From Bacteroidota bacterium (GTDB lineage Bacteria; Bacteroidota; Bacteroidia; Bacteroidales; SKPS01): 64,000 nt of DNA. Below, piece after piece: positions 3,861 through 64,000 of this stretch (positions are counted from its first letter, which is position 1; each line of letters begins with the position of its first letter). Position numbers and translations under genes: made by a program. Where the stretch lies: the NCBI GenBank assembly GCA_022709695.1, contig JAKLII010000001.1, positions 24,881 to 88,880 of the forward strand, given 5' to 3'. The notes under the pieces are model-generated. The model saw only the letters and a list, made by a program, of their open reading frames with translations. It made no database searches and had not been told where the DNA came from.

Positions 3861-6800
3861 ATGGATATGAAGCGAAAATTACTCAGAATGTATGCCGTTA
3901 CCTGGCTGATTGTGCTTTCAGCCTTTACGGCGGGAGCGCAGAACGTAACGGTGGGTGGTGTTGTCTCAGACAGCACTTCAGGTGCTGCGCTGTTTGCGGT
4001 GAACATCCTTCAGAAAGGAACCTCCAACGGAGTGATTTCTGATATCAACGGGAAGTTTACCCTAACAGTACCCAAGGGTGCCACCCTCATCTTCTCCTAT
4101 ATTGGTTATTTAACCAAAGAAGTGGTGATTCAGGAAGGAACCCAGCTTACGATCCGTATGCAGTATGCCACCACTCGACTCGACGATCTGATTGTGATCG
4201 GTTACAGCACCCAGAAGAAGACCGACAAGACCGGGGCAGTAAGCAATGTTACTGCCGAGGAGCTGGTTGGGGGTGTACTTACCGATCCGGTTCAGGGATT
4301 GCAGGGCAAAGCGTCAGGGGTATCGGTGACCAAGAAAGGGGGGGATCCCAACTCCGGGTTTTCGGTGCAGATCCGAGGCGCTTCAGGGTTTAACTCCAAT
4401 ACCCAGCCGTTGTATGTGATTGATGGTGTGCCGGGAGCTGACCCCACAGCGATTTCCCCGGCTGATATCGAATCCATCAATATCCTCAAGGATGCTGCAT
4501 CTACAGCTATTTATGGTTCCAGGGGATCCAACGGGGTAATCATCATTACTACCAAAAAGGGTGTCGCCGGTTCCGGGAAAGGGCAGACCTTCTCGAAAGT
4601 GGAACTGAGTTCACAGGTATCAGTGGACCGGGTGGCCAAAAAGCTTAACGTCCTCTCTGCTGCAGAGATGCGCAACTTTGCCAATACACTGCTGCAGGAA
4701 GCTCTTACTGAGCATCCTGACTACACGGTTGACAGTGTGTTTACCGATGGCGGGGCATCGACCGACTGGCAGGATGTGATCTATCGGAACGGTATTTCCA
4801 CAAGTTCAACCCTCAGTCTTTCCGGGGGGCATGCCAACAGCACCTACTTCGGTTCAGTAACCCGTTCAAACTGGCAGGGTGTGATGCATGGTACTGAAAA
4901 AGACCGGACAACAGCACGATTAAGTGTAACTCACAAAGCGCTGGCAGAGAAGCTGGTGCTTTCAGGGAATCTGATTACCTCTTTCGAAAATAATGATTAT
5001 GAAGATTATGGAGGTTGGGGCAAGTCCGATATCATCTATCAGGCCCTGTCAAGAAATCCAACGGACCCAGTGTATAACAAAGATGTAAACAACAGTGATT
5101 CAGGGTATTATCAGACCAACCGGGTATTCAACTATGAAAACCCGATGGCCATCATCAATGAGATCACAAACCAGAGGGCAGCCAAGCGGATGTTGGGTAA
5201 CATCAAGGCCGATTACGAGATTCTGCCCGGATTTATTGGAAGTGTGAACCTTGGATATATCCGGAATGATCACAACAACGACTATTTCCGTCCGGCCAAT
5301 CTCTACGCTACTGCCGACAACGGATTTGGAAGAAAGAGTTACGAGAACAACACCCAGAAGCTTGTTGAGGTAACAGGAACCTATACCAGGGTTTTTAATA
5401 AAGTACACAACCTTAATGTGTTGGGGGGCTATTCGTGGCAGGAGTCGGTATACAGCGGCTTTTATGCACAGGGTGGAGACGCCCAGTCGGAATTTGCCGG
5501 ACCGGACAATCTGGCAGTTCTGAACGATGTGAAGTGGGGCGATATCGGTTCATGGAAAGGGCAGTGGAACCTGATCGGATTCTTCGGCAGGGTGCAGTAC
5601 AATTATAACGGCAGGTATTACATCACCGGTTCCTTGCGAAGGGATGGCTCTTCGAAGTTCGGCAAGAACAACAAATGGGGCTGGTTCCCTACAGCAGCAC
5701 TGGGATGGAACCTTCTTGAGGAAGACTTCATGAAAGGATTGAAAAGCTTTGATCAGCTAAAGCTCAGGGTAAGCTATGGTATTGCCGGAAATCAGGAGAT
5801 AGGTGAATACAGAAGCCTGGTGGTCTGGGAACCCAGCGGTGTGGCCATCAACCCCGAAACCGGCCAGGAGGTTATCACTTTCAGGCCAGCATGGAATGCC
5901 AATCCCGACCTCAAATGGGAAGAGACCTCAGAACTCAATGTGGGTATCGACTTTTCTCTGCTTAAGAACCGGCTGAACGGCTCACTGGAAGGGTATTACA
6001 AAAAGACCAAGGATCTGCTGGGTGAGTATACCGTTCCCGTTCCCCCTAACCTTGCCACTAAAACCTTTGCCAATTCCGGATCCTTACAGAATATCGGGGT
6101 AGAACTGTTTATGCAGTATTTTGCCATCGACAACCGGAATTTCTCATGGAAAACCAGCGGTACCATTGCCCATAACACTTCAAAGATCCTGGATCTGGGT
6201 TCCTATTTCAATGAAGAGGACGGCGTAAGGAAGGAGGGGTATATCTCGGGTCGCGGAATGGTGGGTGATGAGTACTACCTGACCGGTATCATTGTAGGTG
6301 AAAAGATCGGTTCGTTCTACCTTCCGATATACAAGTCCCTTCAGGAAGGGGAATTTATTTACGAATCCAAGAATGGTGGTTATACTGATAATCTGAGTGA
6401 AGCCAAGCGTGAGATTGTGGGTTGTGCAGCACCCTGGCTGGAGCTGGGCTGGTCGAACAGTTTCACCCTGTACAGGAACTGGACCGTTGATCTGGCATTC
6501 AGGTCGATGATTGGAAACAAGGTGTATAATGCCACCCGGATGTTCTTCGACAATCCGGGAAATCTTCCCTCTCTCAACTCCCTGCCGGATGCCATCGACT
6601 GGCGTGATGACGGGCGCACCTCAGGTTCCAAAATCGCTGATATATACCTCGAGGATGCCTCTTTTGTCAAACTCGATTATCTGGCAGTTGCCTATAAACT
6701 TCCACTCAGAAAGGTGAACAATATCAGCGGGTTATCGATATACCTCTCTTCAAACAACCTCTTTACCATTACAGGTTACAGCGGTATTGACCCTGAAACC

Positions 6801-9851: not shown

Positions 9852-11738
9852 ATGTCTATGATTTTAACGCGATTTTCCGGGATTTCCCTCCTCATAATAT
9901 TGTTTTTCATCTATATAGGAACCGGCGTTTCGGAAGCGCAGGTAAAAATTGAACGCCTTGAGCCACCCTGCTGGTGGACAGGGATGTCGGATCCTTCACT
10001 CCAGTTGCTGGTTTACGGAAAGGGCATCTCAAGCACCACACCTTCAGTTCAGTATCCTGGTGTATTGCTCGATTCTGTCGTTCGTACGGGAAACCCTGAT
10101 TATCTTTTCCTTTACCTCTCCATATCACCCAACACTGCTGCCGGGAAGTTGGAGATATTGTTTGCCGCTCCTCAGAAGGGAAAGAAAAAGCCACCGGTCA
10201 TCCACCATCCATTTGAACTGAAATCACGTGAGACAGGATCCGCCCAAAGGCAGGGTTTTACGTCTTCTGATGTGATATACATGCTGATGCCTGACCGTTT
10301 TGCCAACGGAGATCCCGCCAACGACTCGGTTGGCGGTATGCTTGAGAAAGCAAACCGCAGTAACCCCGATGGCAGGCATGGCGGTGATATACGCGGAATC
10401 AGGAACCATATCGGATATTTCAGGGAAACAGGCATAACCGCTTTGTGGATTAACCCGTTACTGGAGAATAACATGCATGCCTATTCCTACCATGGCTATG
10501 CAGCAACCGATTTCTACAGTATCGATCCCAGGTTCGGAACGCTGGACGAGTATCTTTCCCTTTCGGATGAGTTGCGAAAAAACGGCATAGGGCTGATCGC
10601 TGACATGGTGTTCAACCATTGTGGCCTGAACCACTGGTGGATGAACAACCTGCCAACCTCCACCTGGATCCACCAGTGGCCGGAATTTACCCGTTCAAAC
10701 TACAGGGCCGAAAGCCTGATGGATCCCTACGCTGCAGCATCAGACCAAAAAGAGATGCTGGAAGGGTGGTTTGACCGTGGCATGCCCGACCTGAACCAAC
10801 AGGACCCTCTGCTTGCCACCTACCTGATTCAGAACAGCATCTGGTGGATAGAAACTGCCGGGCTTACCGGTATCCGGATGGACACCTGGCCTTACGTGGA
10901 TGCTGGATTTACTGAGAAATGGATCGACAGGATCAGGGAGGAATACCCGAAATTCTCCGTTCTGGGTGAAACATGGCTTCAGAAAGAAGCGCATACCTCA
11001 TGGTTTCAGCAAAACCCCGCAACCCGTTTCAATTCCGGGTCAAACCTCACCTTTCTCACCGATTTCCCACTGAGTTATGCCATCAACAGGGCTTTCAGGG
11101 ATGAGGATTCCTGGACCGGCGGATTGTACGACCTGTATTATGTGCTGAGCCAGGATTTTCTGTATGCCAACCCCAAACACCTGATGACTTTTGTCGATAA
11201 CCACGATGTGCAACGGTTCTATTCGAACCAGGGCGATAACTACAACCTCTGGGATCTGGGCATGACCTTCCTCTTTACCACCCGTGGTATCCCGGTAATC
11301 TATTATGGTACCGAAATTCTGATGGAAGGTGAAAAGAGCAAAGGGGATGCAGACCTGCGGAAGGATTTCCCGGGAGGCTGGGCAGATGACACCGTGAGTG
11401 TACTTCTGGGCAGAGGGTTTAGCGCCGACCAGATGAAGGCGCTTAACCGCTTCAGGCAGCTGGTAAAGCTCAGAACCGAAGGGATTTACCATCAGGGTGA
11501 TCTGGTGCATTTTGTACCCAGGGATGGCGTGTATGTGTATGGCTGGAGCCACTATTACGAGAACCTGCTGGTGATACTGAACAAGAATTCGTCGGAAACC
11601 CTGTTTGATCCGGAAAGGTTCCGTGAACTGACAGGCGGAAAAACCCTGGGGATTGAATACTTCACCCAGGAAGTTTACTCCCTGGATAAGCCTTTTGTAA
11701 TTCCTCCTCAAAAACCATTGGTCCTGTATCTTAAATAA
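9852..11738 (+). CDS. GH13 cyclomaltodextrinase/neopullulanase-like enzyme (SusA-like), signal peptide
   Basis: Start moved to ATG 9852 because the track start 9777 lies inside the terminator. It has a cyclomaltodextrinase-N-like domain (VKIERLEPPCWWTG...). GH13 motifs are DMVFNHCG, GIRMDTWPY, VLGETW and FVDNHDVQRF. Confidence 0.85.
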   Translation: MSMILTRFSGISLLIILFFIYIGTGVSEAQVKIERLEPPCWWTGMSDPSLQLLVYGKGISSTTPSVQYPGVLLDSVVRTGNPDYLFLYLSISPNTAAGKLEILFAAPQKGKKKPPVIHHPFELKSRETGSAQRQGFTSSDVIYMLMPDRFANGDPANDSVGGMLEKANRSNPDGRHGGDIRGIRNHIGYFRETGITALWINPLLENNMHAYSYHGYAATDFYSIDPRFGTLDEYLSLSDELRKNGIGLIADMVFNHCGLNHWWMNNLPTSTWIHQWPEFTRSNYRAESLMDPYAAASDQKEMLEGWFDRGMPDLNQQDPLLATYLIQNSIWWIETAGLTGIRMDTWPYVDAGFTEKWIDRIREEYPKFSVLGETWLQKEAHTSWFQQNPATRFNSGSNLTFLTDFPLSYAINRAFRDEDSWTGGLYDLYYVLSQDFLYANPKHLMTFVDNHDVQRFYSNQGDNYNLWDLGMTFLFTTRGIPVIYYGTEILMEGEKSKGDADLRKDFPGGWADDTVSVLLGRGFSADQMKALNRFRQLVKLRTEGIYHQGDLVHFVPRDGVYVYGWSHYYENLLVILNKNSSETLFDPERFRELTGGKTLGIEYFTQEVYSLDKPFVIPPQKPLVLYLK

Positions 11739-15567: not shown

Positions 15568-17229
15568 ATGCTCCAAAGGCTTGTCATTACCAACTATGCC
15601 TTGATCCGTCACCTCGATCTTTCGTTTGGAGCGGGGTTATCTACCCTTACCGGTGAAACCGGAGCCGGGAAATCGATTATGCTGGGAGCCCTGGGTCTTG
15701 TGCTTGGAAACAGGGCAGATACACAGGTCCTCTGGGATAAGGAGGAAAAATGTGTGGTGGAAGCAACCTTCAGGGTGCAGGGATATCAGCTGGAAGAGTG
15801 GTTCAGCGGGAATGACCTCGATTATCTGCCCGAAACGATCCTGCGCCGGGAAATCACTCCGGCCGGTAAATCCCGTGCTTTTATCAACGATACTCCTGTA
15901 ACCCTGCCGCTGATGAAAGAGGTGGGTTCCCGCCTGGTGAACATTCATTCCCAGCATGAGATCCTCCTGCTCAATAACCGCGATTTTCAGCTTGCAGTGA
16001 TTGATTCGTTTGCTGGAATCGAAAAGGAGGTGGACGCCTATCAGACATTATTCAGGGATTATACCCGCCTGAGGGAAAAACTCGCTGCGATAAGGGAAGA
16101 ACATGCCGCGCAGATCGCACAGCAGGACTACGACATGTTTTTGCTGGATGAACTCCGTCTGGCTGAACTGGACAAGGTTGATCTGCAGGCCATGGAAGCC
16201 TCGTGCCGCATGCTAGAACATGCCGGGGAAATCAGGCTGGTGCTGCACAGGCTGCTGGATCTTTTCAGCAATGAACCGGTGAACCTGATATCAGCCTTTC
16301 GTAATGCATCTGAAAGCCTGTACCGTATGGAAGCAGGCGGAAAGCTGGCACAAGTGGCAGAGCGGTTGAAATCGATGTGGCTCGAAACAGACGATTTAAA
16401 CCGTGAAATGGAACTCCTTGCCGGTGAAGTGGATGACAACCCCGAAGAGCTCGCAACCATCCGTGACCGGTTGAGCCAGCTGTACCATATCATGCAGAAG
16501 CACCGGGTAAACGACCTGGCAGGCCTTATCAGCATTCGCGATACGCTCAGCGAGAAATGGCTGAAGCACAATGACCGTGGAACCGAAATCTCCAGGATCT
16601 CGGCTGAATGTGAAATAAAATATCAGGAACTAAAGGATCGCTGCGCAAAGCTTTCCAGGGAAAGGGCACAGGCCTCCAAACCCCTTGCGGAACATCTGGG
16701 CGGTATTCTTGCAAAGCTCGGGATGCCACTGTCAGCAGTGAATTTTCAGATCACTCCTTTGCCGGAACCCGGTGCAGATGGGTCGGACCATGTAGAGTTG
16801 TTGTTCAGCGCAAATGCAGGTTCAGATCCAAGTCCGGTGAGCAGGGTCGCCTCCGGTGGGGAACTGTCGCGCCTGATGCTGGCCATAAAATCGGTGCTTT
16901 CGACCCGGCAGCTGATCCCCACCATCATCTTTGATGAGATTGATGCAGGAGTATCCGGTGAGATTGCCGGGAAAGCCGGTAACATCATGCAGCAGATGGG
17001 ATCTTCAATGCAGGTGATTGCCATCACCCACCTGCCACAGATTGCTGCCAGGGGAGCAGAACAGTTTCAGGCATCAAAATATCTTGAAAACGGACGTACT
17101 TTTTCGGTGGTGCAGAAGCTGACCCCCTCCGAGCGTATTGAGGCCATTGCCCGGATGCTGAGTGATGGCGACCCCACACCCGAATCGCTGGCGAATGCCC
17201 ACAGGCTCATGCTTAGGGATAAAAGGTGA
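15568..17229 (+). CDS. recN: DNA repair protein RecN
   Basis: 553 aa. The N-terminal Walker A is LTGETGAGKSI, followed by a long coiled coil and the C-terminal SMC signature ASGGELSRLMLAIK plus FDEIDAGVSG. Confidence 0.93.
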   Translation: MLQRLVITNYALIRHLDLSFGAGLSTLTGETGAGKSIMLGALGLVLGNRADTQVLWDKEEKCVVEATFRVQGYQLEEWFSGNDLDYLPETILRREITPAGKSRAFINDTPVTLPLMKEVGSRLVNIHSQHEILLLNNRDFQLAVIDSFAGIEKEVDAYQTLFRDYTRLREKLAAIREEHAAQIAQQDYDMFLLDELRLAELDKVDLQAMEASCRMLEHAGEIRLVLHRLLDLFSNEPVNLISAFRNASESLYRMEAGGKLAQVAERLKSMWLETDDLNREMELLAGEVDDNPEELATIRDRLSQLYHIMQKHRVNDLAGLISIRDTLSEKWLKHNDRGTEISRISAECEIKYQELKDRCAKLSRERAQASKPLAEHLGGILAKLGMPLSAVNFQITPLPEPGADGSDHVELLFSANAGSDPSPVSRVASGGELSRLMLAIKSVLSTRQLIPTIIFDEIDAGVSGEIAGKAGNIMQQMGSSMQVIAITHLPQIAARGAEQFQASKYLENGRTFSVVQKLTPSERIEAIARMLSDGDPTPESLANAHRLMLRDKR

Positions 17230-37364: not shown

Positions 37365-37598
37365 ACATTTTTTTTTACGGATAGCGTGATACTGTCATTG
37401 CAGCATCATTTCGTTATTACCTATTCAGCCGTATCCAATTGCGATCATGATAATTCTGGCCAATCAACGAATCGGATGCTGCATGTTGATTGATGACAGA
37501 TTACCCCAGCAAAAAAATCCATCCACCCACATCAATTTCTGAAAAAAATGATTAAATTACCATCAGAAAAATGATCAATATCTAATCAAATCTTTCTT

Positions 37599-37661
37599 GG
37601 ATCAAGGATCAACGTTCAAATATCAAAACAACAACAAACAACAAACAACAAACAACAAAAG
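37599..37661 (+). repeat. Nine phased heptamers forming the leader of the polymerase gene
   Basis: GGATCAA GGATCAA CGTTCAA ATATCAA AACAACA ACAAACA ACAAACA ACAAACA ACAAAAG, then ATG at 37662. This contains (CAACAAA)x4 perfect at 37632-37659. The first 17 nt are identical to 772-788. Confidence 0.9.
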
Positions 37662-40601: not shown

Positions 40602-40605
40602 TCAT

Positions 40606-40662
40606 TTCCGGATTTTATCGCACACGGATCAAACGGATTTTACGAATTAACACGGATTATAA
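40606..40662. repeat. Short tandem ACGGAT-type 9-10 bp word repeats
   Basis: CGGAT/CGAAT words start at 40609, 40625, 40634, 40643 and 40653 (tccggatttta, cacggatcaa, aacggatttt, acgaattaa, cacggattat). They lie between the polymerase stop and the GxxExxY stop. Confidence 0.7.
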
Positions 40663-40672
40663 ACATTATTAT

Positions 40673-41080
40673 TCAAAACCTGGTCATGGGTTTTTGGGAC
40701 TTCCTGTCGTTTGTGAAGATCTTTCTCCTGAATTCCGGATTCTTGCCAAAATTCAACAGAAGCCCAACTTCTTTATCTGTTGCTTTCAAATAGTTGATTA
40801 ATTGCAGTTCATTTTCTTTAATCAGACACTCTGATGCTTTAAGCTCAACTATTATGGTATCCTCGACAATAATGTCGGTAAAGTATTCACCAACAGTAAT
40901 GTTATTGTAATAGACATTGATCTTCTTTTGTTTATCTGCTTTGAGGCCTTGCTCTTTCAACTCCACCAGTATGGCATTTTCATAGACTTTTTCCAGGAAA
41001 CCAAAATCAAGCGTGTTGTAAACTTTAAAAAAGCAATTCAGTATTCTATTTGTCAATTCCTTGTGCAAGAGATCATTCAT
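40673..41080 (-). CDS. GxxExxY-family protein (PD-(D/E)XK nuclease-like fold)
   Basis: 135 aa. The GFLEKVYENAL signature (G-x-x-E-x-x-Y) and the ...IIVELKA...QLINYLKAT...GLLLNFG blocks are typical of the family. Confidence 0.85.
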   Translation of the reverse strand: MNDLLHKELTNRILNCFFKVYNTLDFGFLEKVYENAILVELKEQGLKADKQKKINVYYNNITVGEYFTDIIVEDTIIVELKASECLIKENELQLINYLKATDKEVGLLLNFGKNPEFRRKIFTNDRKSQKPMTRF

Positions 41081-41136
41081 GGTCGCGGCATGTCTTTAAT
41101 CCATTTTTAAGCAAAATGCACTGGTTTACAATAAAC

Positions 41137-41415
41137 AATCAGTGATCATCAGTTGCAACCGTAAAATCAGTGTTCAATGATTGTTTTCTAATCCTATAAA
41201 TGATTGAAAACAGAAAAACGGAGATTATCAATCAATTTTTTCAGCAGATTTCCCTGAGGGGTATTAAGTATTACTTCAGATCCCCGTAATAAGTGATGCT
41301 AATGGAAGACTGATGCCACCGATACAACGGATAAACACACATTTTATAGAACGGATTCATTATTGTGTTTTTAGTAAATCAGCGATCATCCGTTACATCG
41401 GTGTTGACCGTGTTC
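41137..41415. repeat. Dispersed word repeats: two ~39-bp AATCAGYGATCATCMGTT... copies plus ACGGAT words
   Basis: 41137-41175 and 41377-41415 match at 28 of 39 positions by eye. ACGGAT occurs at 41327 and 41351, and the inverted ATCCGT at 41388. Confidence 0.6.
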
Positions 41416-59392: not shown

Positions 59393-59432
59393 AACACAGA
59401 TGAAACTGATGGGACTGGTTTCCGATGATTAT

Positions 59433-59633
59433 TTCTCGCAGAAAACGCGGAAACTACGCAGATATCCGCAGAAGTTATTTATTTTTTCAGCGTCTTTCCG
59501 CGAAATTTCAGCGAATTTCAGCGAGAGAAAAAATTTCACGCAGAAACCTCGCGGAAATCCGCAGAAACATTTTTTCAGCGCCACTTGTGCTGAGCTTGTC
59601 GAAGCATCAGTGAAATTTCCTGCGAGAAACTTC
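59433..59633 (+). repeat. Modular intergenic repeat, locus R1 (A-C-A-B-C', partly degenerate)
   Basis: Contains TTCTCGCAGAAAACGCGGAAACTACGCAGATATCCGCAGAAG. It also has ...GCGAAATTTCAGCGAATTTCAGCGAGAGAAAAAAT and CTCGCGGAAATCCGCAGAAAC. CCACTTGTGCTGAGCTTGTCGAAGCA lies at 59581-59606. Confidence 0.9.
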
Positions 59634-59666
59634 TATGGATAAAAATATCTGAAGTATAATAAATCC

Positions 59667-62362: not shown

Positions 62363-62507
62363 TTTTTTCTCGCAGAAATCCGCAGACAGCACGCGGAAAT
62401 CCGCAGAACCTTATTTCAGCGTCTATCTGCGAAATTTCAGCGAATTTCAGCGAGAGAAAAAATATTCTCGCAGAAATCCGCAGTAAGTTCGCGGAAATCC
62501 GCAGAGA
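62363..62507 (+). repeat. Modular intergenic repeat, locus R2 (A-A-C-A-A, no B module)
   Basis: TTTTTTCTCGCAGAAATCCGCAGACAGCACGCGGAAATCCGCAGAACCTTATTTCAGCGTCTATCTGCGAAATTTCAGCGAATTTCAGCGAGAGAAAAAATATTCTCGCAGAAATCCGCAGTAAGTTCGCGGAAATCCGCAGAG. Confidence 0.92.
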
Positions 62508-62513
62508 TCATTC

Positions 62514-62891
62514 TCATAAACCATTAACAATTCGCTGAATCGAGTGTAGTATATTGGCTGTGTTGAAGTTAATCAGTAATCCAAGCTTTTTATCAGAAAG
62601 CTTCAGGTACGTTAAAAGTTGCTTGCTGTGCACATCTGTGAGCTGTTCAACTGATTTGATTTCAACGATCACTTTGTTTTCTACAAGCAGGTCTATCCGA
62701 TATCCAACATCAAGTTTAACATCTTCATAAACAAGCGGCAGAGGCACCTGCGAATTAACAATCAAGCCATTTTTACTGATAAGGTGCTTTAAAACAGATT
62801 CATAACTCGATTCAAGTAATCCTGGCCCAAGTTCCTTATAGGTAGTATAAACTGCGCCACGGATGATGTACGAAATTTCATTTTCAGTCAT
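62514..62891 (-). CDS. GxxExxY-family protein (PD-(D/E)XK nuclease-like fold)
   Basis: 125 aa with the GLLESSYESVL signature and ...VIVEIKSV...QLLTYLKLSDKKLGLLINFN. It is a paralogue of 40673-41080. Confidence 0.85.
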   Translation of the reverse strand: MTENEISYIIRGAVYTTYKELGPGLLESSYESVLKHLISKNGLIVNSQVPLPLVYEDVKLDVGYRIDLLVENKVIVEIKSVEQLTDVHSKQLLTYLKLSDKKLGLLINFNTANILHSIQRIVNGL

Positions 62892-62965
62892 AAGTTTTTA
62901 TTGTATATATGATTGAGCTTTCAAAAAAGGAGACAGGTAAGGTACTTTTTAAAAATAATCATGAT

Positions 62966-63020
62966 TCTTTCTGCGAATTTCCGCGTAATTTCACCGAGTT
63001 TCTGCGAGAAAAAAAATCAC
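62966..63020 (+). repeat. Modular intergenic repeat, locus R3 (degenerate C module only), abutting the MBL start codon
   Basis: TCTTTCTGCGAATTTCCGCGTAATTTCACCGAGTTTCTGCGAGAAAAAAAATCACG aligns to the C module TCTGCGAAATTTCAGCGAATTTCAGCGAGAGAAAAAAT. It ends 1 nt before ATG 63022. Confidence 0.7.
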
Positions 63021-63021
63021 G

Positions 63022-63726
63022 ATGAAAACCTTCACTACAAAATCGGGTTACCAAATCATTCAGCTGTTAAGTGGCCGTGCCAATGTATGGCTCGTGGAAG
63101 CCGGTTCAATCCGCATTCTGGTAGATACCGGGATCACCCTCAACCGCAAAAAACTCCTCAACAAGCTCAATCCCGAATCGCTTCGCTCCCGGGACTCCGC
63201 TTCGCTCCGCCTCAACTTTCTCCTGCTGACCCACACCCATTTTGATCATTGTCAGAATGCAGCCTGGCTAAAGAACAGGTTAGGGTGTAAGATCATTGTC
63301 GGGGAGAGTGCGAAAGAGTTTGTCAGGATGGGGTACACACCGATCCCTGGTGGAGTAACCCGGTGGGCCAGGTTTGTTGTGAGGTTAGGGAGAAAGTTCA
63401 GGCCAGGATTTACAGGTTATGCTCCATTTCAGGCAGATATGATTGTGAAAGAGAAGTTTACATTTGCGCTGGAAGGGGTAAACCTGGAAATTATCCCTAC
63501 CCCAGGACACTCCTCCGATTCCATTTCCCTGCTGGTTGACGGTGAGGTAGCAATTGTTGGAGATACATTGTATGGGATGGTATCCGGGAAAGCCATGCCT
63601 CCGTTTGCAGATGATGTGCCGTTGTTGAAGCAGCAGTGGAAAGTATTGCTTGATACGGGTTGCCAATGGTTTTTGCCGGGACACGGAAAACCCATTTCTG
63701 CCGCTTTGCTGCAGAAATTCATTTAA
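63022..63726 (+). CDS. MBL-fold metallo-hydrolase
   Basis: 234 aa with the HxHxDH motif (LLLTHTHFDHCQN) and a later PTPGHSSDS block. Confidence 0.85.
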   Translation: MKTFTTKSGYQIIQLLSGRANVWLVEAGSIRILVDTGITLNRKKLLNKLNPESLRSRDSASLRLNFLLLTHTHFDHCQNAAWLKNRLGCKIIVGESAKEFVRMGYTPIPGGVTRWARFVVRLGRKFRPGFTGYAPFQADMIVKEKFTFALEGVNLEIIPTPGHSSDSISLLVDGEVAIVGDTLYGMVSGKAMPPFADDVPLLKQQWKVLLDTGCQWFLPGHGKPISAALLQKFI

Positions 63727-63740
63727 TACCCTGATTTTAT

Positions 63741-64000
63741 TTCTCGCGGAAATCCGCAGAACCTTATTTCAGCGCCACTTGTGCTGAGTTTGTCGAAGCA
63801 TCTGCGAAATTTCAGCGAATTTCAGCGAGAGAAAAAATATTCTCGCAGAAATCCGCAGAAAGCACGCGGAAATCCGCAGAATTTTATTTTAGCGCCACTT
63901 GTGCTGAGCTTGTCGAAGCATCAGCGAAATTTCAGCGAATTTCAGCGAGAGAAAAAATATTCTCGCGGAAATCCGCAGAACCTTATTTCAGCGCCACTTG
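63741..64000 (+). repeat. Modular intergenic repeat, locus R4: tandem array (100-bp unit, 120-bp unit, third unit cut by window end)
   Basis: Unit 1 is 63741-63840 (A-B-C). Unit 2 is 63841-63960 (A-A-B-C). Unit 3 starts at 63961 and is identical to unit 1 as far as the window shows. Confidence 0.92.

Follow-up and report, generated by a model that had tools for sequence, protein, structure and literature searches.

A GxxExxY gene between inverted arms of short repeated words: a probable hairpin cassette in a Bacteroidota genome

We analysed a window of 64,000 nucleotides (nt) from a Bacteroidota bacterium (contig JAKLII010000001.1), focusing on a GxxExxY gene of 125 amino acids (aa) near its end and on the short repeats in which this gene is embedded. 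The gene, at 62514-62891, is read from the minus strand, whereas the other long open reading frames (ORFs) from 56.9 to 64 kb all lie on the plus strand; these encode an RHS/YD-repeat protein, an aminotransferase, an 896-aa SBBP-repeat protein and an MBL-fold hydrolase. A first-pass annotation of the same DNA had described this lone inverted gene inside a field of repeats, with its stop codon 7 nt from the end of one repeat and, on its other side, a truncated module (R3) running up to the start codon of the MBL gene. These descriptions hold. From the end of the last CGCAGA word (62505) to the stop codon, which on the plus strand is TCA and begins at 62514, the gap is 8 nt, or 7 if one more base is assigned to the repeat. 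R3 (62965-63017) is a piece of what we call the C module, to which it is 83% identical, and together with CACG it reaches the MBL ATG at 63022.

The flanks of the gene are related to each other. Positions 62465-62505 and 62970-63010 form a 41-nt inverted repeat in which 33 of the 41 bases match, with a score of 50 against 12.7 +/- 2.4 in shuffled sequences, approximately 16 standard deviations above. Read in the direction of the gene, the flank upstream is TTCTCGCAGAAACTCGGTGAAATTACGCGGAAATTCGCAGA and the flank downstream, reverse-complemented, is TTCTCGCAGAAATCCGCAGTAAGTTCGCGGAAATCCGCAGA. Each arm is an array of CGCAGA/CGCGGA words, answered in the opposite arm by TCTGCG/TCAGCG/TCCGCG, at a spacing of 10-11 nt. 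A second GxxExxY gene (copy 2) lies just beyond the window end in the same orientation, directly after the repeat field at 63.7 kb (8506-8883 of contig L001), and shares parts of this layout with the first gene (copy 1). The features of the locus are as follows.

62367 to 62464, plus strand: gene-less unit, consisting of an A arm (62367-62407), the spacer ACCTTA (62408-62413), a C arm (62414-62456) and an A-rich loop (62457-62464).
62465 to 62505, plus strand: arm adjoining the 3′ end of the gene, TTCTCGCAGAAATCCGCAGTAAGTTCGCGGAAATCCGCAGA; forms the inverted repeat with 62970-63010 and is nearly identical beside copy 2.
62506 to 62513, no strand assigned: junction between arm and stop codon, GATCATTC; identical in both local gene copies.
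62514 to 62891, minus strand: GxxExxY (PD-(D/E)XK) gene, 125 aa, recognised from profile matches, alignment and an AlphaFold2 model.
62892 to 62969, minus strand: leader of the GxxExxY gene; by alignment, the first ~44 nt (62892-62935) are kept in copy 2 and the remainder is not.
62970 to 63021, plus strand: arm on the 5′ side of the gene (R3, a C-type module) with an A-rich tail; an 83% copy of the C module and the inverted-repeat partner of the first arm.

The last of these ends at the MBL ATG, and therefore also serves as the leader of the MBL gene. This ATG is kept in relatives, where the leaders are unrelated. The gene-less unit (62367-62464) folds as a hairpin (z = -2.6), and its comparison with the filled unit is instructive: between 62392 and 62463 the order is A arm, ACCTTA, C arm, and between 62465 and 63017 it is A arm, gene, C arm. 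Since the same two arms enclose either ACCTTA or the gene, the gene occupies the spacer position between them. The first-pass annotation had suggested that the gene was inserted into, or carried with, a repeat unit that it split. The position within a unit is borne out, although the flanks turn out to be the inverted arms of a hairpin rather than just the halves of a split direct repeat.

Pairs of empty and filled sites, which that suggestion anticipated, are provided by two relatives of the window (L088 and L089) and by Chryseobacterium nematophagum. Filled and empty gaps were compared by local alignments, as a MAFFT alignment was misaligned and uninformative. In L088, whose MBL protein is 74% identical, the gene order is retained (aminotransferase, 895-aa protein, MBL, RmuC, nucleotidyltransferase, VWA/OmpA) and neither gap holds a GxxExxY gene. 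In L089, within the gap between the SBBP and MBL genes, a 37-nt spacer separates an A-type arm from a C arm that is homologous to the C module of the window, and there is no gene. A clearer case comes from five Chryseobacterium/Elizabethkingia genomes (L041, L047, L050, L058, L077), where a peptidase S9 gene and tpiA enclose arm, gene and arm, followed by an AT-rich tail. In C. nematophagum (L090) 15 nt separate these two genes and both the arms and the gene are absent; arms plus gene are thus one unit of gain or loss. Further, Mariniphaga sediminis (L016) has one intact gene within tandem 238-nt units, each consisting of a C arm, loop, A arm, leader and an internally deleted gene (~86 nt of its head and ~20 nt of its tail), which means that gene-less repeat units can derive from cassettes. 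Among 80 surveyed loci, real remnants of the gene head were found only in L014 and L016. Arms and gene come and go as one, and derivatives that lack the gene or have an internal deletion occur and can amplify in tandem. Taken together, the sites lacking the gene in L088/L089 and C. nematophagum and the units of Mariniphaga indicate that gene and arms form one cassette.

These 80 loci, which contain relatives of the protein, were drawn from GTDB species genomes and span Chitinophagales, Sphingobacteriales, Flavobacteriales, Cytophagales and Bacteroidales, with a few others. The same kind of words occurs in the flanks of nearly all of them, at a density within 150 nt of the gene that is 5-11 times background. 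To score the flanks, we locally aligned the upstream flank with the reverse-complemented downstream flank, using 863 other genes of the same loci as controls. The median inverted-repeat score was 24 for GxxExxY genes and 17 for controls (Mann-Whitney p = 2e-22), and 53% of GxxExxY genes exceeded the control 95th percentile. The link between GxxExxY genes and repeat words that the first-pass annotation proposed is therefore statistically strong in 80 other loci. It had extended this idea to four-helix-bundle genes of the '23S IVS' type (named after the intervening sequences, IVS, of 23S rRNA), and rightly so: the top-scoring "controls" were two four-helix-bundle 23S_rRNA_IVP genes, one of them with 77-nt arms of tandem heptamers, two more PDDEXK_3 genes and a GIY-YIG gene of 107 aa. 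Near such cargo genes, arrays of short words reach 0.85 per kb, six times the density elsewhere (0.14 per kb). Arms around the gene are the rule for GxxExxY genes across Bacteroidota, and four-helix-bundle genes and a small GIY-YIG gene have the same layout.

The two arms of a cassette also change together. Word types (TCTGCG, CTTTGCG, CTCTGTG, CTCCGTG and others) track the clade of the protein, and vary among cassettes within one genome, as in L009, L051 and L086 and between copies 1 and 2 and a third copy in the window. Of 91 upstream arms, 19 find their best partner in the downstream arm of their own cassette, where 1 would be expected (own versus cross, p = 5e-11), and two Marinifilum species (L083 and L086) differ by one compensatory double change in otherwise identical 44-nt arms. 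Own-partner pairing, clade-linked words and this matched double change all imply that both arms evolve together. Pairing is loose (~80%), the commonest mismatch being A/T at the word centre. Mismatches compatible with G-U pairing show no strand asymmetry (89 against 91), a balance that lends no support to a purely RNA-level constraint. Among Chryseobacterium orthologues from three species, the C arm is 76-88% identical and synonymous sites 57-67%, a comparison that involves few sequences and problems of register and that we do not take as a sign of selection.

In profile searches the 125-aa protein matches TIGR04256 (GxxExxY; E=1.8e-39, 134.7 bits, cut-off 35) and PF13366 (PDDEXK_3; E=2.6e-38, 131.4 bits, cut-off 22), and the family match spans residues 5-122. 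The full-length score is above the curated cut-off, and the motif residues (G24/E27/Y30) and catalytic-type residues (D67, E77, K79) are all present; in an alignment of 103 sequences, G24, E27, Y30, D67 and E77 are invariant and K79 nearly so. The AlphaFold2 model has a confidence score (pLDDT) of 95.9, and its closest solved folds, Cas4 (4ic1), lambda-type exonucleases and tRNA-splicing endonucleases, are weak matches (TM ~0.5). PADLOC reported only a faint similarity to Cas4 (E ~1e-3) and recognised no known defence system for this protein. A sequence search for solved structures gave no match with E below 0.3, and a tblastn search of phage records gave no match. On the strength of the model and conserved residues, the protein looks like an apparently intact, minimal PD-(D/E)XK nuclease, with a predicted fold that does not reveal its substrate. 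It has more than 8000 relatives at E<=1e-10, and the best 120 matches (58-73% identity) come from several bacteroidotal orders together with Balneolaceae and Chlorobiota. The literature searched gives no function for GxxExxY/PDDEXK_3 and no description of the present architecture for the GxxExxY family; a survey of PD-(D/E)XK proteins enters the function of PDDEXK_3 as "Unknown".

Beyond the cassette itself, the following features belong to the surrounding field or to the third gene copy.

40602 to 41260, minus strand: third GxxExxY cassette, with its gene at 40673-41080 (minus strand), 135 aa, profile match E=2.8e-38.
59393 to 59640, plus strand: gene-less repeat field in the gap between the aminotransferase and SBBP genes, with CTGAT-type words, A-type words, a C module (59482-59534), loop, A arm and B spacer.
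63022 to 63726, plus strand: MBL-fold hydrolase (PF00753), a neighbour outside the cassette; the same gene order occurs without GxxExxY in L088.
63735 to 64000, plus strand: tandem 120-nt units (C arm, loop, A arm, B spacer) found by Tandem Repeats Finder, continuing beyond the window end into the second GxxExxY gene (L001, L007).

That the gene lies in a real repeat field is confirmed both by word counts and by the tandem unit. With up to 1 mismatch, GAAATCCGCAGA occurs 12 times against 0.53 expected, and with up to 3 mismatches TTTCAGCGAGAGAAAAAAT occurs 6 times against 0.01 expected. Tandem Repeats Finder delimits the 120-nt unit at 63745-63980 (2.0 copies, 94%); its C arm, A-rich loop, A arm and spacer fold as a hairpin on both strands (z = -4.2 and -4.6). 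The field at 59393-59640 aligns with the corresponding gap of the related organism L089 (score 91). Within the window, copies of the repeat occur in the gaps at 59.4, 62.36-62.51, 62.96-63.02 and 63.74-64.0 kb and nowhere else. When the ~10 kb extension on L001 is added to the 64-kb window, the repeat is limited to five consecutive gaps, ranging from ~59.4 to 64.9 kb, and the other 59 kb are devoid of copies. An exact 29-mer of the repeat had 0 matches in a collection of genome contigs, and among metagenome contigs it was found at this same locus only (L007), a weak negative since the scan missed the carriers L002 and L005 (JGI contigs). The local repeat units may well be gene-less derivatives of the cassette, like those in L016.

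The tandem units differ in detail. A 26-nt insert, the B spacer CCACTTGTGCTGAGYTTGTCGAAGCA, is present at 63776-63801, 63896-63921 and 59582-59607, and absent from the unit at 62392-62463. The MBL gene and copy 2 are separated by at least 3 units in the window and in L002, and by 2 in L001 (regions compared: window 63735-64000, L001 8890-9160, L002 1-330). Four of six contigs terminate within this repeat, reflecting either copy-number variation or assembly collapse. Several small "proteins" in gene calls and ORF lists are mere translations of the repeat, for example SAKFQRISAREKISRRNLAEIRRN, and are probably spurious; the ORFs in question are L002 4445-4708, L001 9867-9983, and 59364-59642 and 59425-59613 of the window. 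A search of Rfam returned no family at gathering score, only sub-threshold chance matches to snoRNA and miRNA families, and a scan for promoters and terminators found no excess over shuffles, with a tool that does not model Bacteroidota promoters. At the junctions, GATCATTC matches CATGATTC at 6 of 8 positions beside copy 1, and the agreement beside copy 2 is 4 of 8.

Copy 2 has the same 3′ junction as copy 1, CGCGGAAATCCGCAGA|GATCATTC|TCA, and the gene is followed by another unit and then by rmuC. The proteins of the two copies are 86% identical, and no other protein exceeds 73% among the matches listed from a collection of 5.8 billion sequences. Their synonymous divergence (dS) of 0.77, with dN/dS of 0.10, means that the copies are not recent. 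Over the 5′ third of the gene the two copies are 75% identical, over the 3′ third 91%, and in arm and junction ~98-100%. We read copies 1 and 2, which occupy neighbouring gaps, as old paralogues whose arms and adjoining gene end were presumably kept alike by gene conversion. Copy 3 lies between a dnaE-like gene and a DEAD-box helicase gene, and is 30% identical to copy 1. Its flanks (40602-40672 and 41081-41260) carry ACGGAT/ATCCGT and CACTGAT words, not the repeat found at 62 kb, and pair weakly (inverted-repeat score 24, shuffle p = 0.04).

Several further observations concern repeats in the window or in its relatives. In L088 the same two gaps (4990-5135 and 5905-6030) hold a different ~130-nt repeat with the hairpins CCCTTCTCCTCAAGGAGAAGGGG and CCCCTCTCCTTGAGGAGAGGGG, so that these gaps are repeat traps in both lineages. 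The gap between the aminotransferase and SBBP genes of L088 contains, at 2052-2167, a gene-less hairpin of ACGGAT/ATCCGT words, the type found around copy 3, with the outer pair GCACACGGAT...ATCCGTGTGC. In L077 (Chryseobacterium kwangjuense), at 10480-10560, the C arm is followed by a second A arm and then by ATGATGGAAAATGAAATTTC, which looks like the head of a truncated GxxExxY copy. The Saprospiraceae contig L044 has gene-less hairpins at 2186-2360, 4073-4174, 6211-6284 and 16290-16476, whose arms are arrays of differing 7-8-nt words (GGATATTG/CAATATCC, GTCATTA/TAATGAC, TTGGAC/GTCCAA). Elsewhere in the window, the intergenic region at 750-890 carries three tandem heptamer arrays (AAGGATC, ATAACTC x4.3, CTGCCGA x4.3) with no cargo gene and no obvious inverted partner, and at 37594-37659, upstream of the dnaE-like gene, a 22-mer shared with 767-788 (TTCTTGGATCAAGGATCAACGT) precedes AACAACA x4.3, which runs up to the start codon. 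On L001, rmuC is followed by a HepT-like/nucleotidyltransferase (MNT) toxin-antitoxin pair (6102-6744), of which the nucleotidyltransferase gene alone is called in L088.

We propose that the locus is probably one copy of a hairpin cassette, in which a small nuclease gene sits between inverted arms built from 6-7-nt words at a spacing of ~10-11 nt. That the gene was carried with its repeat is better supported than insertion into a pre-existing repeat, because the empty site in Chryseobacterium lacks arms as well as gene, the words follow the cassette and not the host, and the units in Mariniphaga are deleted cassettes. The surrounding field would then be made up of arms of cassettes and of derivatives that lack the gene, with gene conversion or unequal recombination between units preserving their similarity. 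The arms could supply homology for copying the gene into a neighbouring unit, or deleting it from one, by break repair, and recombination between arms would multiply the gene-less units. The encoded nuclease might start such copying by cutting a hairpin or cruciform, or an empty arm junction. A wider hypothesis, which we advance tentatively and consider rather doubtful, is that GxxExxY, small GIY-YIG and four-helix-bundle genes are all carried by mobile hairpin cassettes of a single, hitherto undescribed class. A gene-less arm pair would form a hairpin or cruciform for the nuclease to cut, repair from a filled copy would spread the gene, repair between arms would keep the arrays complementary, and rRNA IVS with an ORF would be the same elements in rRNA helices.

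A number of observations weigh against the cassette proposal. Nuclease activity, a cleavage site and movement of the cassette are all hypothetical, and its mode of spread is inferred. The exact repeat of this window was found solely at this locus, leaving genome-wide spread unsupported; no consistent target-site duplication was seen at the junctions read; and the 26-nt B spacer contains no trace of the gene, its similarity to the gene being no higher than in shuffles. The gene-less arms in the same gap of L089 would allow insertion into an older hairpin at this locus. Of the 92 cassette genes scored (three cargo types, looser threshold), 21, approximately a quarter, have no convincing arms; some genes lie between hairpins and not within one; and the four-helix-bundle cargo is not a nuclease. 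The GxxExxY protein is also unusually conserved (60-70% identity across orders, dN/dS 0.10), which fits a cellular function better than a decaying selfish gene. This conservation, the non-nuclease cargo and the fact that some cassettes have long been inherited vertically, occupying the same site in two genera, Chryseobacterium and Elizabethkingia, all speak against a simply selfish element.

These observations have to be set against three other explanations. The arms might act at the RNA level only, pairing in the transcript to form a stem whose cleavage by RNase III frees or insulates a small mRNA, with an unrelated nuclease function and no role in spread. Coxiella has an IVS of this architecture, and its stem has been shown to be cut by RNase III (PMC4990558); arm complementarity is moreover specific to each cassette, and half of the cassettes point the same way as both neighbouring genes (31, with 11 antisense). 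We consider this explanation unlikely, given that the G-U balance shows no strand bias, the commonest mismatch disrupts pairing on both strands, changes in one arm go uncompensated in orthologous Chryseobacterium cassettes, and the window copies are antisense to their neighbours. It would also leave unexplained the joint gain and loss of arms and gene, and the tandem deleted copies.

Alternatively, a nuclease kept by the host might recognise the words and multiply gene-less hairpins genome-wide, the gene being merely flanked by its own substrate, as with repetitive extragenic palindromic (REP) sequences and REP-associated tyrosine transposases (RAYT). The placement of the gene between inverted copies of a repeat that is also gene-less nearby would fit, as would strong purifying selection and the empty inverted word arrays elsewhere in related genomes (for instance L044 2186-2360). 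The protein is not a Y1/HUH transposase, however, and within the window and its extension the repeat is local, restricted to consecutive gaps. Multi-copy GxxExxY genes have their own words at each copy while the protein barely changes, which argues against sequence-specific recognition of words, and we regard this explanation as very unlikely. To the idea that pre-existing intergenic hairpins, whether terminator-like or regulatory repeats, are safe landing sites whose loop the gene entered by an unrelated mechanism we likewise assign a very low probability. The gene-less arms of L089 around their 37-nt spacer, the gene-less hairpin in the neighbouring gap of L088 and the arm that forms the MBL leader up to its ATG are all compatible with landing sites. 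Against them, the Chryseobacterium empty site has no arms at all, word types differ among cassettes of one genome and track gene phylogeny, the deleted-gene units of L016 show that gene-less units can come from cassettes, and terminator- or promoter-like sites are not in excess.

The locus is a member of a phylum-wide architecture for an uncharacterised family of predicted nucleases, of the IVS-like "ORF in a hairpin" kind but outside rRNA. A very large and highly conserved family, GxxExxY (PF13366), is thereby tied to a defined DNA architecture, which gives a testable handle on the role of its proteins. The architecture also bears on the purpose of ORFs in rRNA intervening sequences, a question dating from the 1990s, and on the origin and continued complementarity of short-word hairpin repeats. 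In practical terms, such repeats disrupt metagenome assemblies and yield spurious small gene calls.

The cassette is neither a RAYT nor an integron cassette, nor is it a recognised transposon. An integron attC cassette was ruled out: a reading of the 120-nt unit revealed no GTTRRRY core, and there is no integrase among the neighbours. As in systems of REP/REPIN and RAYT, a short repeat flanks a gene in inverted orientation on its two sides and is also found in intergenic hairpins that carry no gene. The differences are the lack of an HUH/Y1 transposase (the gene matches PF13366 and TIGR04256 only, not an IS200/IS605-like Y1 transposase), the multiple gene copies, the cassette-specific words, and a repeat that, across the window and its extension, is local and tandem and not dispersed. 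Miniature inverted-repeat transposable elements and their parent elements share terminal inverted repeats and internally deleted, gene-less derivatives, of the kind seen in L016 and not detectable in this window. Here, no transposase is recognised, target-site duplication is not clear, and the derivatives are tandem and local.

Free-standing homing endonuclease genes offer another parallel, being small nuclease genes present or absent at a fixed intergenic site. Such polymorphism is seen between L088/L089 and the window, and between L090 and L041, L047, L050, L058 and L077. The cargo is a PD-(D/E)XK protein here and a GIY-YIG protein in a sister cassette, and flanking homology would permit copying by break repair. 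The high conservation and purifying selection of the cassette gene contrast with the usual decay of homing genes, and inverted arms of words are foreign to known homing genes. Arms of this construction do occur in the P6b stem-loop of the trnL intron of the cyanobacterium Nostoc, where both are built from one 7-nt motif, length varies by whole units and motif classes are replaced (PMC4476775); those hairpins are likewise arms of one repeated short motif, but are gene-less and lie inside a group I intron.

By architecture, the closest described design is the ORF-bearing IVS of 23S rRNA, known from Coxiella, Leptospira and others, in which a long inverted-repeat stem with tandem short words similarly carries a small ORF in its loop. 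Such elements are patchily distributed and regarded as selfish. In Coxiella, an S23p four-helix-bundle ORF occupies the loop of a stem cut by RNase III, and the stem region contains three tandem GACAGAT heptamers whose number varies among strains; a mobile-element origin has long been suspected (PMC4990558). Non-intron rRNA inserts of the candidate phyla radiation (CPR) bear GIY-YIG or 23S_rRNA_IVP ORFs, and are mostly located at the tops or bases of stem-loops (bioRxiv 10.1101/2024.02.27.582315). The present cassette has its ORF inside a long inverted-repeat stem, but lies between the genes for an SBBP-repeat protein and an MBL hydrolase instead of in a 23S rRNA helix. Its cargo is of the PD-(D/E)XK type and its arms carry no RNA-specific pairing signal. 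The two are nevertheless linked by their cargo, as the IVS family PF05635 (S23p/23S_rRNA_IVP) is found within the same type of arms in the loci studied here.

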